From Candidatus Caldarchaeales archaeon (lineage in GTDB: Archaea > Thermoproteota > Nitrososphaeria_A > Caldarchaeales > Calditenuaceae): 64,000 nucleotides of DNA. Made by a program: the position numbers and the translations under genes. Of the stretch, positions 45,788 to 47,510 are shown in pieces (positions within the stretch are counted from its first letter, which is position 1; each line of letters opens with the position of its first letter). Below the pieces are notes generated by a model. It saw nothing but the letters and a program-made list of their open reading frames with translations, had not been told where the DNA came from and made no database searches. The stretch is taken from NCBI GenBank assembly GCA_039630085.1, contig JBCNVM010000001.1, positions 64,001 to 128,000 on the forward strand, read 5' to 3'.

Positions 45788-46294
45788 TTGTACTACATCG
45801 AGCCCTCCGAGGTCGTCAAGCTGACAGAGGTCTTCGGAGGCGAGGAGGCGACGAGGGTCGTCAAGCTGCTCCTGGAAGAGCCCGGGCTCTCTGACGAGGA
45901 GCTGGCCGGCAAGCTCGGGGTCGACGTCAAGCAGGTGAGGAAGACGCTCCACAGGCTCCTCGAGCTCTCCCTGGTCACGTACACGGTCAGCTTCGAGAAG
46001 GAGAACGGCAAGAGGACCTTCAGGTGGAGGCTCCAGCTGGAGCAGGTGGTGAGCGCGGTCCGCGGCCAGGCGATCAGGATCATCGAGAGGCTGAAGATGC
46101 TGAGGGAGTTCTACTCGTCGAACGTCGTCTACTGGTGCGGTAACGCGAGCTGCAGGAAGCTCGACTTCTCGACCTCGGTCGACCACTTCTTCAAGTGCCC
46201 TTACTGCGGCAACCAGCTCCAGCCCTACGACCCCTCTGAGATGCTGAGGGCGATCGACGAGAAGATAGCCGAGCTCAGCAAGCTTCTGAGATGA
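45788..46294 (+). CDS. tfe: transcription factor E (TFE alpha)
   Basis: wHTH SDEELAGKLG...VRKTLHRL...FRWRL and zinc ribbon YWC...C...FKCPYCG; TTG start after GGAG. Confidence 0.9.
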   Translation: MYYIEPSEVVKLTEVFGGEEATRVVKLLLEEPGLSDEELAGKLGVDVKQVRKTLHRLLELSLVTYTVSFEKENGKRTFRWRLQLEQVVSAVRGQAIRIIERLKMLREFYSSNVVYWCGNASCRKLDFSTSVDHFFKCPYCGNQLQPYDPSEMLRAIDEKIAELSKLLR

Positions 46295-46860
46295 GCAGGG
46301 TCACGGTCCTGAGGCTCTTCCACAGGGTCGGGAGGGACGACAGGGTCACCGCCCACGTGGCGCTGACCGCGAGGGCCTTCGGCGCGTCGGGGGTCGTCGT
46401 CTCCGGCGACAGGGACGACGGGCTGATCGAGTCGATCAGGAAGGTGACCGAGGAGTGGGGAGGGCCCTTCGACATCTCCTTCGTCGGTGACTGGGAGGGC
46501 TACCTGAGGGAGCGGAAGTCCGCGGGCGATGTCCTAGTCCATCTGACGATGTACGGGGTGAGCCTGCTCGACGTCATCGGGGAGATCCGGGACCAGCTCG
46601 GCCGGAGGGGAGTGGTCGTGGTGGTCGGGTCCAGCAAGGTACCGAGGGTCGTCTACGAGCTGGCCGACTACAACGTCTCGATCGGGAACCAGCCCCACAG
46701 CGAGGTCGCCGCGCTCGCGGTCTTCCTCGACAGGCTCCTCGAGGGCCGAGTCTTCAGGGCCGAGTTCCAAGACGCCAAGCTGAAGGTCGTCCCGGACCCG
46801 AGGGGGAAGAGGGTCGTGAGGCTGAGGGGAGGTAACCTTAAGAGCGAAGCGTGGGACTGA
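46291..46860 (+). CDS. tRNA (cytidine(56)-2'-O)-methyltransferase aTrm56
   Basis: RDDRVTAHVALTARAFGA, WGGPF, VHLTMYG, NQPHSEVAALAVFLDR. Confidence 0.93.
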   Translation: MSRVTVLRLFHRVGRDDRVTAHVALTARAFGASGVVVSGDRDDGLIESIRKVTEEWGGPFDISFVGDWEGYLRERKSAGDVLVHLTMYGVSLLDVIGEIRDQLGRRGVVVVVGSSKVPRVVYELADYNVSIGNQPHSEVAALAVFLDRLLEGRVFRAEFQDAKLKVVPDPRGKRVVRLRGGNLKSEAWD

Positions 46861-46869
46861 GATCGAGCG

Positions 46870-46917
46870 GGGGCCGTGGTCTAGCGGCATGACGCCGCCC
46901 TCACACGGCGGAGGTCG
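46870..46917 (+). pseudogene. 5' fragment of tRNA-Val(CAC) (acceptor 5' strand, D arm, anticodon arm, variable loop); candidate split-tRNA half or remnant
   Basis: GGGGCCG-TG-GTCTAGCGGCATGAC-G-CCGCC-CTCACAC-GGCGG-AGGTC-G; no TTCGA loop or 3' acceptor strand follows. Confidence 0.75.
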
Positions 46918-46967
46918 GAGATGCTAACACGGTTTCCTTTATTACAAGGCTAGGAGCTTTTACGGCA

Positions 46968-47058
46968 GGGGCCGTGGTCTAGGGGTATGACGCCGCTCTC
47001 ACATGACTGATGTCGGGGGAGGCAGCGGCAGCCGTGGGTTCGAGTCCCACCGGCCCCA
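46968..47058 (+). tRNA. tRNA-Val(CAC) with a 19-nt anticodon-loop intron (about 47004-47022)
   Basis: GGGGCCG/CGGCCCC acceptor stem, CCGCT/AGCGG anticodon stem, CTCACA[intron]C loop, GTGGG-TTCGAGT-CCCAC T arm, A73; TTTATTA about 30 nt upstream. Confidence 0.8.
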
Positions 47059-47219
47059 TCGTGATTTTATACATCTTGCACTGGAAAATTATCTTGTATC
47101 GGTGCGATCAGAATAATATGAGTGACTGTGAAGAGGGAAAAAGAGGGGGGAGCGCTTCGTCGGATTCTCCTCAGCGTTTTCTGAAATCGAAGCCGAAAAG
47201 AGAATTTCGTCTTTCCGTC

Positions 47220-47510
47220 TCCGCCGACGTCTGCTGCCTCTTCTGCAACGCCGAGCAGGCGCTCTTCCTTATGACCGCGACAGACCTCGCTATTATCGGG
47301 AAGCCTGCCTGTGCAGCGCTGGCCAAGGCCCTGAACGAGAAGAGGGCTGTGATCAGCATGGGGTGCACCGCGAGCAGGACTAGGGCTGGCTACGGCCCTG
47401 ACGAGCTGGTCGCCTTCATACCAGCCGAGAAGCTAGAGCAGGTCGTGATGTCGCTCCGCGTGGTGGTCCCGATCGAGAGAAAGGTCCGCGAAATCGCCAA
47501 GTCGAAGTAA
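47220..47510 (+). pseudogene. C-terminal fragment of a DUF169-like protein
   Basis: ADVCCLFCNAEQA, PACAALAKAL, SMGCTASRTRAGYGPDELVAFIP; the upstream in-frame sequence is AT-rich and overlaps the tRNA, so there is no credible N-terminal half. Confidence 0.55.

Follow-up and report, generated by a model that had tools for sequence, protein, structure and literature searches.

A 5' fragment of a tRNA-Val(CAC) gene, with a promoter-like element of its own, stands in this DNA directly before a second, divergent and complete gene for the same tRNA. Does the fragment still contribute to a tRNA, as half of a split gene or as an alternative exon, or is it what was left when another gene took its place? 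The interruption, fragmentation and splitting of archaeal tRNA genes is an old open question, and this locus appears to show the process caught recently, with an undecayed native stub beside a xenologous substitute that has its own promoter and intron. The locus lies in a window of 64,000 nt, within an assembly (G000) of 1.41 Mb that is 89.9% complete, and contains the following features.

46291..46860, + strand: aTrm56 (tRNA C56 2'-O-methyltransferase; Pfam PF01994, E 6.7e-45), with its stop codon at 46858-46860
46831..46842, + strand: promoter-like GGTAACCTTAAG, assigned to the ancestral tRNA-Val, within the 3' end of aTrm56 and upstream of copy 1
46870..46917, + strand: copy 1, the probable 48-nt 5' remnant of an intronless tRNA-Val(CAC), canonical positions 1-49 (from identity with congeners)
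46918..46967, + strand: putative start of the incoming DNA, a 13-nt junction piece and then the copy 2 promoter at 46931-46967 (from homology to the tRNA-Val(GAC) promoter)
46968..47058, + strand: copy 2, complete tRNA-Val(CAC), interrupted at 37/38 by a 19-nt intron (47004-47022) (ARAGORN; Rfam, 55 bits)
47105..47211, + strand: 3' flank of copy 2, of the type found at LAGLIDADG genes (homologous to the stretch that follows LAGLIDADG stop codons elsewhere)
47224..47510, + strand: DUF169 gene without its 5' part; what is left encodes about residues 129-222 of 222 (it matches Pfam PF02596 from position 122 to 207 of a profile of 209)

The initial annotation had described two copies of a tRNA-Val 5' part, 98 nt apart, and this description holds: the copies (46870-46917 and 46968-47058) start at 46870 and 46968 and are identical at 33 of 36 positions over the stretch that it quoted. 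The window has two occurrences of a degenerate 29-mer, for which 100 dinucleotide shuffles give an expectation of 0.00. ARAGORN with introns allowed gave many spurious giant-intron calls and was used for anticodons only.

Copy 1 and the ancestral tRNA-Val gene

Copy 1 has an intact D arm and an intronless anticodon arm (CCGCC/CUCACAC/GGCGG), followed by AGGTC and a G; as first described, it is truncated before the T loop. Downstream of the G the sequence continues with GAGATGCTAACACGG and then TTTCCTTTATTAC. Together with this tail copy 1 scores 26.1 bits, below the Rfam RF00005 gathering score of 29, and the score depends on a pairing of GGGGCCG with CGGUUUC that includes three G.U pairs. We rejected the view that CGGTTTC in the tail is a decayed acceptor strand; since it lies within a segment homologous to the promoter of tRNA-Val(GAC), the acceptor-like pairing is taken as coincidental.

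Among the findings that, taken together, would make copy 1 a dead remnant, the initial annotation had named relatives with a single intact tRNA-Val at this place, and this is what three congeners (G003, G006 and G004) have: an intact, intronless 72-nt tRNA-Val(CAC) directly after aTrm56. On its left side the ancestral tRNA-Val has aTrm56 as a conserved neighbour, and the pairing is found in these three and in other genera of the family. Copy 1 matches the first 48 nt of the congener genes at 48/48 positions in G006, 48/48 in G004 and 46/48 in G003, whereas the flanks are just 78-90% identical. Homology to all three ends exactly at 46917, which corresponds to a cut after G49, at the boundary between variable loop and T stem, and it resumes inside DUF169, at 47224 for G003 and at 47232 for G006. 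The DUF169 proteins of G003 and G006 are 222-223 aa long, and G000 has the C-terminal part only (tblastn).

The promoter-like element that had been assigned to copy 1 is indeed present in the end of aTrm56 and is conserved: it is identical in G003 and reads GCTACGTTTAAG in G006 and G004, with an intact tRNA-Val downstream in all three. Judged by sequence and position, however, GGTAACCTTAAG appears to be simply the promoter-like element of the ancestral intact tRNA-Val(CAC), inherited with the fragment.

We consider it highly probable that copy 1 is what remains, at the 5' end and without function, of the intronless tRNA-Val(CAC) that the lineage originally had next to aTrm56, and that incoming DNA replaced the rest of that gene. 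That an incoming copy with an intron took the place of the ancestral gene had been the last alternative offered by the initial annotation, and it is the one that the breakpoints and the intact genes of the congeners favour. Copy 1 may still be transcribed from the old promoter, and nothing suggests that the product is joined to a T arm. Its undecayed state (0 changes in 48 nt) fits a recent event; selection on copy 1 would fit too.

Copy 2 and the proposed incoming DNA

Copy 2 scores 55.0 bits against RF00005 (gathering score 29) and is the sole full tRNA-Val(CAC) gene in the assembly. It had been called complete yet odd, and the oddities are all there: the stem pair CCGCT/AGCGG, the variable loop CAGCC and the 19-nt intron. 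Bases that tell the two apart are C16, C19, the pair C31:G39 and AGGUC in copy 1, and G16, the pair U31:A39, CAGCC and a GUGGG T stem in copy 2. An exact-pattern search for its combination of stem and variable loop gave 0 matches in genome, viral and metagenome contig collections. At minimum free energy it folds into a cloverleaf whose anticodon helix is extended. This fold lacks a strict BHB (3-nt bulge, 4-bp helix, 3-nt bulge) and contains a relaxed motif, in which a 2-nt bulge holds the 3' splice site, a 3x3 internal loop holds the 5' splice site and 3 bp lie between the two; for the related Caldiarchaeum the available text of PMC3082918 reports a heterotetrameric endonuclease to which relaxed motifs are acceptable.

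The exons of copy 2 are identical to the native gene of the genus at 61/72 positions and to a gene of another genus at 65/72. Six of the 11 exon differences from the native gene fall within 12 nt around the breakpoint. The intron is identical at 14/19 positions to that of tRNA-Val(UAC) in G003. On these comparisons the intron appears to be of the 37/38 type typical of the family, and the T arm of a type seen in another genus.

The T-rich tract after copy 1 had been read as a short tail with oligo-T, the expected ending of a split half. Its sequence instead identifies it, in all likelihood, as the TATA/BRE promoter of copy 2 and not as a terminator. A TATA-like TTTATTA lies at 46938-46944, 24-30 nt before the gene, and 46931-47015 is 80% identical to positions 851-935 of contig C3 in the same assembly, which comprise the promoter of tRNA-Val(GAC) and the first 48 nt of the gene itself. 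Taken separately, the stretch before the gene (46931-46967) is identical to that promoter at 29/37 positions, and the promoter region also matches G003 (C3:102767-102851). The spacer between the copies has no second copy in the genome (blastn-short, self match only), and a 20-mer from it gave 0 matches in metagenome contigs.

A search of 76 genomes of the class for a donor of 46918-47223 gave only tRNA-length matches and two flank homologies. The flank at 47105..47211 is 84% identical over 73 nt to C64:21964-22036 of G000, which lies between tRNA-Ala and a LAGLIDADG ORF, and it aligns with the 3' flanks of LAGLIDADG ORFs on C64, C2, C24 and, in G004, C20. The genome has four strong copies of this flank motif, three of which adjoin a LAGLIDADG ORF (nhmmer). 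At the tRNA-Val locus the motif stands alone at 47105-47211, with no LAGLIDADG ORF in the window and no match on contig C1. As a candidate C/D-box sRNA the motif was rejected, its box spacing being unfit and Rfam giving no match.

The ancestral state, the two breakpoints and the promoter homology can be read directly from these alignments, as can the recurrence of the layout and the LAGLIDADG-tRNA linkage in the class, which are described below. We propose that foreign or ectopic DNA, extending from 46918 to about 47223, displaced three native parts: the last 24 nt of tRNA-Val, the intergenic region and about 384 nt of DUF169. It would have brought a full substitute, consisting of a TATA/BRE promoter, a divergent intron-bearing tRNA-Val(CAC) and a LAGLIDADG-type 3' flank, and copy 2 would now supply tRNA-Val(CAC).

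Junctions and other readings of the tandem

Could the arrangement, or part of it, be an assembly chimera of co-existing strains, produced via shared tRNA k-mers? Read mapping had been suggested in the initial annotation, and contigs of two runs (X1 and X2) bear on this point. X1 record 2, at depth 11 where the flanks have 15, matches 46905-47058 without a difference, and X2 records 12 and 13 span 46888-46999 and 46970-47142; the 3' part of copy 1, the tail and copy 2 are therefore physically joined in real DNA. The right junction, however, is unbridged by the public contigs (47220-47223 uncovered in X1, 47220-47343 in X2), and both long X1 flanking contigs leave the window path: a 10.2-kb contig identical to 47224-47500 runs leftwards into an intact DUF169, and the aTrm56 contig enters a 20-nt intron after 46904. 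Beyond 47211 an X2 contig carries sequence that resembles the LAGLIDADG ORF on C64 at its 3' end. The alternative continuations in X1 imply either that the population is heterogeneous or that the right junction, as assembled, is false or a minority form; the alleles co-existing in X1 are the intact-DUF169 form, the intron-bearing aTrm56 continuation and the tandem form. Several other tRNA stubs of this genome sit on contigs shorter than 2.1 kb or at contig ends, as a chimera would also allow. Set against this are the X1 and X2 records that join stub, tail and copy 2, and the identical layout that arises independently in a genome of another genus (G017), and we hold a chimera to be unlikely. 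In G003, 20 kb lie between tRNA-Val and DUF169; a provirus was considered for this interval and rejected, as it is found as ordinary chromosome in G000 (C1:244448-259340), which indicates rearrangement.

The headline proposal of the initial annotation was a split tRNA-Val joined by trans-splicing, to which copy 1 would contribute the 5' half and a gene elsewhere the 3' half, whose complementary leader would form a BHB. The conserved promoter-like element retained upstream, the perfect match of copy 1 to G006 and G004 and the incompleteness of the assembly (only 89.9%) would all suit such a half. The search that it called for, for an orphan 3' piece with a leader complementary to the tail, found none in the roughly 90% complete assembly: all six genome sites with a T loop and a Val-type acceptor CGGCCCC(A) lie inside complete tRNA genes, the Rfam genome scan holds no orphan Val 3' half, and the 18-nt tail (GAGAUGCUAACACGG) has no complement in the assembly at up to 3 mismatches, its own site excepted. 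The tail moreover merges into a promoter homologous to another tRNA-Val promoter, an intact gene with the same anticodon (copy 2, 55 bits) lies 50 nt downstream, and relatives have one intact tRNA-Val at the exact place, all of which leaves a split gene extremely improbable. No greater chance can be given to the suggestion that the copies are alternative 5' exons of one read-through transcript, sharing the T arm and acceptor of copy 2. No obvious terminator lies between them, and in a 189-nt fold copy 1 is able, through the 5' strand of its acceptor, to pair with copy 2 at the 3' end of the latter, a trivial consequence of the repeat. The same fold has no helix-bulge-helix around the would-be splice sites (46917/46918 and 47033/47034), the flanks of these two sites are non-complementary, and the fold energy is unremarkable (z -1.10).

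The locus had also been called an integration scar, which is apt as far as replacement by incoming DNA goes, but not in the sense of an integrase att scar. In the latter, an integrase-type element (pNOB8- or SSV-like) would have entered tRNA-Val and then been almost wholly deleted. The usual integration sites in archaea are tRNA genes, and a direct repeat of the 5' part resembles attL/attR. For the tRNA-Thr of Caldiarchaeum such an origin is proposed in the available text of Sugahara et al. 2012 (PMC3293823). Here merely 50 nt, with only a promoter and no element, separate the repeats; the stub is native to nt 49 but resembles copy 2 only as far as nt 36, so that the junction has no shared crossover core; and the 3' part of copy 2 and its downstream flank are non-native. 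The tyrosine recombinase domain PF00589 has 0 matches in the 1.41-Mb assembly, against a positive control of 14/14 reference genomes. We consider an att scar improbable, if somewhat less remote than a split gene.

LAGLIDADG genes, recurrence and known systems

The layout of a native stub, a TATA spacer and a new tRNA recurs within G000 and, independently, in G017. On C2 of G000 a 9-nt tRNA-Lys stub is followed by a spacer of about 51 nt that includes a TATA-like tract, then by a new tRNA-Lys(CUU) with an intron and a convergent LAGLIDADG ORF; the remainder of the native tRNA-Lys gene begins contig C14 and overlaps the stub by 4 nt (CGTA). Contigs C43 and C15 carry tRNA-Gly stubs, each followed by a new tRNA-Gly gene, and G000 has eight further short tRNA fragments. 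In G017 the orthologous aTrm56 locus (C17) has a stub of tRNA-Val(UAC), separated by 46 nt of AT-rich spacer from a new gene for the same tRNA. The stubs break at nt 9, ~27, 31-34, 38 and 48-49; as these breakpoints differ between cases, a single cleavage site is not evident.

The LAGLIDADG ORF on C64 matches PF14528 (E 1.3e-11), and its best match among solved structures is I-DmoI (PDB 5ak9, 1b24 and others; E 1e-5), with which both LAGLIDADG motifs align and the acids of GDG and SEG are kept. The family is found in 43 of the 76 genomes of the class, with 0 to at least 26 copies per genome, many of them broken; within the genus G000 has six LAGLIDADG matches and G003, G005 and G006 have none. 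A single-protein search of viral contigs with the ORF gave 0 relatives. The family is tightly linked to tRNA genes: of 27 distinct loci, 16 have a tRNA gene that is convergent to the ORF and 60-310 nt away from its 3' end, compared with an estimated chance expectation of about 0.14 in 27. At the analogous tRNA-Lys and tRNA-Ala loci of G000 the LAGLIDADG gene is present.

Other observations count against the endonuclease as the cause. The G017 locus has no LAGLIDADG ORF within 4 kb (tblastn), some tRNAs adjoining such an ORF are canonical and not divergent (for example on C25 of G012), and nine tRNA-linked LAGLIDADG loci scanned at E <= 1 yielded one doubtful tRNA fragment only. Among the matches listed, Rfam tRNA counts do not separate LAGLIDADG-rich from LAGLIDADG-free genomes; G003, with no LAGLIDADG match, has 58 such matches to the 46 of G000.

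We infer that the replacement at tRNA-Val is part of a mobile-element-driven process of tRNA disruption and replacement known from Caldiarchaeum. Its cause is possibly, though we say so tentatively, a free-standing I-DmoI-like LAGLIDADG cassette: the native gene would have been cut, the break repaired from a diverged donor and the LAGLIDADG gene later lost. Still more tentative is the generalization that the class harbours I-DmoI-like LAGLIDADG cassettes that invade or convert tRNA genes and spare the host by means of a promoter-equipped replacement tRNA with the same anticodon, which may often bear an intron and be altered around the break site. If this were so, the Val stub and copy 2 would be the footprint of one such event after endonuclease loss, and such cassettes would at the present day be driving the gain of tRNA introns, the scattering of tRNA fragments and the lateral replacement of tRNA genes. 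The locus also carries a warning for annotation: tRNA finders that allow long introns can fuse a stub with its neighbour gene, and a stub may pass for half of a split tRNA.

Split tRNA genes, which PMC3293823 also summarizes, occur in Nanoarchaeum equitans, Caldivirga and Staphylothermus. A stand-alone 5' piece with an upstream promoter-like element is common to these and to our locus, whereas here no partner half, complementary leader or BHB was found and an intact gene lies next door. I-DmoI is an intron-encoded LAGLIDADG endonuclease of Desulfurococcus, inside an rRNA intron; ORFs of the G000 type are, in contrast, free-standing, have N-terminal helix-turn-helix-like extensions and are convergent to tRNA genes.

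A functional likeness is offered by SegB of phage T4, a free-standing GIY-YIG homing endonuclease in a tRNA gene cluster that, in the available text of PMC2330249, drives the inheritance of neighbouring genes. Both systems have an endonuclease gene beside tRNAs, patchy among close relatives, with flanking markers that apparently move along; SegB is a phage GIY-YIG enzyme, whereas here the enzyme is a predicted I-DmoI-like LAGLIDADG protein of archaeal chromosomes, its gene gone at the Val locus.

The nearest precedent is tRNA-Thr(GGU) of Caldiarchaeum subterraneum, a host from the same archaeal order, where, as the available text describes it, fragment and gene stand apart, on either side of 1.87 kb of inserted DNA that includes an 813-bp ORF (Sugahara et al. 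2012, PMC3293823). There the insertion separates the two, whereas here just 50 nt do, and the multi-copy sequence, the LAGLIDADG flank motif, stands 3' of copy 2 and not between the copies. In Caldiarchaeum the new gene has a native 3' part; here the whole gene and its 3' flank are non-native. An integrase-type model was put forward for Caldiarchaeum, while the family linked to our loci is LAGLIDADG; neither LAGLIDADG nor homing appears as a word in the available text of that paper, and the multi-copy, tightly tRNA-linked family provides a testable suspect that it leaves unnamed. The two loci share, on the same source, a 5' fragment identical to an intact allele, a full intron-carrying gene of the same anticodon downstream, multi-copy mobile DNA and a heterogeneous population.

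The interrupted tRNA-Val(CAC) gene beside aTrm56

The 5' part of a tRNA-Val(CAC) gene is present twice in the window, as the initial annotation described, and the degenerate 29-mer that captures it occurs 2 times against 0.00 expected (100 shuffles). The two copies are:

46870-46917: copy 1, partial tRNA-Val(CAC)
46968-47058: copy 2, complete tRNA-Val(CAC), with anticodon CAC at 47000-47002 and a 19-nt intron at 47004-47022

Only copy 2 is called as a tRNA by ARAGORN and Rfam (55.0 bits; gathering score 29), which confirm its completeness and intron, and no other full tRNA-Val(CAC) is present in the genome assembly (1.41 Mb, 66 contigs, 89.9% complete). Copy 1 with its tail scored 26.1 bits in cmscan, under the gathering score, and owes this solely to a GGGGCCG/CGGUUUC pairing with three G.U pairs in which the T arm is skipped.

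In three genomes of the same genus (G003, G004 and G006), aTrm56 (PF01994) is followed by one intact, intronless 72-nt tRNA-Val(CAC). Copy 1 matches the first 48 nt of this gene at 48/48 positions in G006 and G004, despite flanks that are merely 78% identical to the window, and at 46/48 in G003, whose flanks are ~90% identical; all three alignments end exactly at 46917. The promoter-like GGTAACCTTAAG noted upstream of copy 1 is indeed there, and is identical in G003 (GCTACGTTTAAG in G006 and G004); it is the promoter region of the ancestral intact gene. The matching congener genes, their common end point and the conserved promoter region indicate that copy 1 is the ancestral tRNA-Val(CAC) gene, severed after G49 at the variable-loop/T-stem boundary.

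Copy 1 had been read as the 5' half of a trans-spliced split tRNA, on the grounds of its own promoter, short tail and T-rich tract. On the evidence of the 89.9%-complete assembly this reading is wrong, although the underlying observation is real: the native gene was replaced. A T loop with a Val-type acceptor strand occurs at 6 sites in the assembly, all 6 within complete tRNA genes, leaving no orphan 3' piece in this 89.9%-complete assembly, and the complement of the 18-nt tail is absent from it at up to 3 mismatches. The spacer between the copies matched only itself in the genome search. Were the copies two 5' exons sharing one 3' exon, as also suggested, the 189-nt read-through transcript would be the substrate; its predicted fold is of ordinary stability (z -1.10) and lacks a helix-bulge-helix where the exons would join. 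Thus neither the split nor the shared-exon reading shows any of the defining features that could be tested.

Origin and boundaries of the incoming DNA

The T-rich tract belongs to copy 2. Positions 46931-47015 are 80% identical to C3:851-935 of the same assembly, where tRNA-Val(GAC) is represented by its upstream region and first 48 nt. Taken by itself, the upstream part matches that promoter at 29/37 positions, with TTTATTA (46938-46944) aligned to TTTATAA, and the promoter of the G003 tRNA-Val(GAC) matches likewise. Because 46931-46967 resembles a tRNA-Val(GAC) promoter, the tract is the TATA/BRE region of copy 2 and not a terminator of copy 1.

The exons of copy 2 are identical to the native gene of the genus at 61/72 positions and to the tRNA-Val(CAC) of G018, another genus of the family, at 65/72; the T stem GTGGG/CCCAC is common to copy 2 and the latter. 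Its intron matches that of the G003 tRNA-Val(UAC) at 14/19 positions and resembles the introns at position 37/38 of tRNA-Val genes throughout the class. The combination CCGCT...AGCGG CAGCC had 0 matches in collections of genome, viral and metagenome contigs. The predicted fold of copy 2 is a cloverleaf whose anticodon helix is extended; one splice site falls in a 2-nt bulge and the other in a 3x3 loop, making the motif a relaxed one, not a strict BHB. A local duplication of the native gene is unlikely, because copy 2 has a promoter like that of Val(GAC) and exons that differ from the native gene at 11 positions, whereas copy 1 has no differences.

On the right, synteny restarts inside a DUF169 gene, at 47224 against G003 and 47232 against G006. 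The DUF169 protein has 222-223 residues in relatives; approximately residues 129-222 remain here (positions 122-207 of the 209 in the Pfam profile), and the N-terminal part was not found by tblastn anywhere in the assembly. Compared with G006, ~0.6 kb has been lost (24 nt of tRNA, ~206 nt intergenic and ~384 nt of DUF169), with 306 nt (46918-47223) in its place. A frame of 130 codons (47118-47510, starting with ATG) joins 35 new cassette-flank codons to the last 95 residues of DUF169 and may be a chimeric ORF or a pseudogene. In the G003 genome, which is the closest relative, tRNA-Val and DUF169 are separated by 20 kb with tRNA-Arg(CCG) at the end (contig C1; L014, L015); the same segment lies in our assembly at C1:244448-259340, 91% identical, inverted and 133 kb away. 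This difference is a rearrangement bounded by tRNA genes.

The congener genes, the breakpoints and the non-native copy 2 agree with the remaining suggestion of the initial annotation, replacement by an incoming intron-containing copy. Judged from these comparisons, a cassette of promoter plus gene very probably came in recently and took the place of the native tRNA-Val(CAC), displacing the tRNA 3' end, the intergenic region and part of DUF169.

Read support came from Logan contigs of two DNA runs (X1 and X2) of one study. The tandem form is supported by X1 record 2 (46905-47058, 0 differences; depth 11, flanks ~15) and by X2 records 12 (46888-46999) and 13 (46970-47142). Other contigs diverge. 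The 23.9-kb aTrm56 contig of X1 enters a 20-nt intron after 46904 and continues with CGGCGGAGGT; this 46904/46905 branch suggests an allele with an intron in the aTrm56-linked tRNA-Val piece. A 10.2-kb X1 contig identical to 47224-47500 runs leftward into intact DUF169, and an X2 contig leaves 47211 into sequence resembling the 3' end of a LAGLIDADG ORF on C64. Several alleles therefore co-exist in the community, probably including one carrying the endonuclease gene, and what the assembly shows as the right junction is a minor allele, or else a mis-join.

Recurrent architecture and LAGLIDADG genes

Related arrangements occur elsewhere in the assembly (G000) and in relatives.

Truncated tRNA genes and related loci
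G000 C2:44023-46210 (L089): tRNA-Lys(CUU) stub, G003 synteny stopping 9 nt into the native gene; ~51 nt with a TATA-like tract; new intron-bearing tRNA-Lys(CUU); convergent 667-aa LAGLIDADG ORF
G000 C14:1-101: rest of native tRNA-Lys, from nt 6 onward, at the contig start, with 1.5 kb of downstream synteny
G000 C43:1-158: tRNA-Gly(CCC) stub, 35-nt TATA spacer, new intron-bearing tRNA-Gly
G000 C15:1409-1700: tRNA-Gly stub, 186 nt, tRNA-Gly(UCC); one promoter motif precedes both
G000, additional fragments: Trp 1-48, Gln 1-27, two Gly 3', two Leu 3', Ala 3' and Val 3' pieces (C1:584-631; C10:14248-14271; C24:70-96; C50:557-583; C28:194-217; C56:67244-67277 and 81593-81622; C64:19729-19747)
G017 (another genus) C17:4900-6200, minus strand (L107): orthologous aTrm56 locus with native tRNA-Val(UAC) stub of ~38 nt
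G017 C3:6394-6714 (L068/L010): two identical tandem intron-bearing tRNA-Val(CAC), 227-nt period; locus partly N-masked
G004 C20: tRNA, flank motif, frameshifted LAGLIDADG ORF, decayed tRNA 3' remnant

The two tRNA-Lys remnants overlap by 4 nt (CGTA). The 667-aa ORF has a long, helix-turn-helix-like N-terminal extension; to its right lie at least 5 kb that have no same-genus counterpart and carry repeats shared with C1, C12, C64 and C66. Outside its tRNA genes, the 1.4 Mb of G000 contain twelve tRNA fragments, and at 2 of them (Gly, C43 and C15) the layout of stub, TATA spacer and new tRNA recurs. ARAGORN also called several "tRNAs" in G000 whose introns would span 424-2140 nt, and some of these at least are probably fusions of a stray fragment with a remote gene part. 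At the G017 aTrm56 locus, a 46-nt AT-rich spacer separates the stub from a new, divergent tRNA-Val(UAC), downstream of which lies a convergent 216-aa ORF of unassigned family; no LAGLIDADG match turned up within 4 kb. The tandem G017 tRNA-Val(CAC) genes, the best full-length match to copy 2 (83%), lie 68 nt from a convergent LAGLIDADG ORF.

The 3' flank of copy 2 (47115-47185) is 84% identical to C64:21964-22036, a spacer that separates tRNA-Ala(GGC) from a convergent ORF of 359 aa; this ORF matches PF14528 (E 1.3e-11) and I-DmoI (E 1e-5) and retains both LAGLIDADG motifs and acids. Homologous ORFs on C2, C24 and G004 C20 have the same block after their stop; of its 4 strong nhmmer copies in G000, 3 adjoin a LAGLIDADG ORF and the fourth is the window copy. 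On C24 a Gly 3' piece abuts the ORF 3' end. The family is patchy and multi-copy, found in 43/76 genomes of the class, with 6 matches in G000, 0 in G003, G005 and G006 of the same genus, and up to at least 26 elsewhere, many with stops. Among 20 fetched loci, 17 have a tRNA within 1.5 kb, and in 12 it is convergent, 60-310 nt from the ORF 3' end; 7 additional distinct loci gave 4 convergent tRNAs and one tRNA-like match scored only under the tmRNA model. Overall, 16/27 loci have a convergent tRNA, against ~0.14 expected by chance as estimated from tRNA density. The linked tRNAs are of many different identities. No PF00589 (Phage_integrase) match was found in the 89.9%-complete assembly, which therefore holds not even an Xer-type recombinase.

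Comparison with known systems

The locus adds a new case to a phenomenon that has been published before in this archaeal group. In Caldiarchaeum subterraneum, the tRNA-Thr account of Sugahara et al. 2012 (PMC3293823) describes a 5' fragment that precedes a tRNA-Thr carrying an extra intron; between the two lies a multi-copy insertion of 1.87 kb whose ORF was termed a putative recombinase; it reports co-existing alleles and proposes pNOB8-type integration. Its text mentions neither LAGLIDADG nor homing, and, in the portion that concerns them, the Caldiarchaeum genome paper names homing endonucleases for rRNA introns only. Judged by title and abstract, we found no literature tying LAGLIDADG or homing endonucleases to archaeal tRNA genes or to Caldiarchaeum tRNA. 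What goes beyond the published description is the systematic LAGLIDADG-tRNA linkage and the recurrent architecture. That a free-standing I-DmoI-like endonuclease may drive the replacements is a tentative proposal, to which we give rather less than even weight; if true, linkage and architecture would supply a testable mechanism for tRNA gene replacement. Its closest functional analogue, as far as the account in PMC2330249 goes, is T4 SegB, an endonuclease that promotes the inheritance of adjacent tRNA genes.
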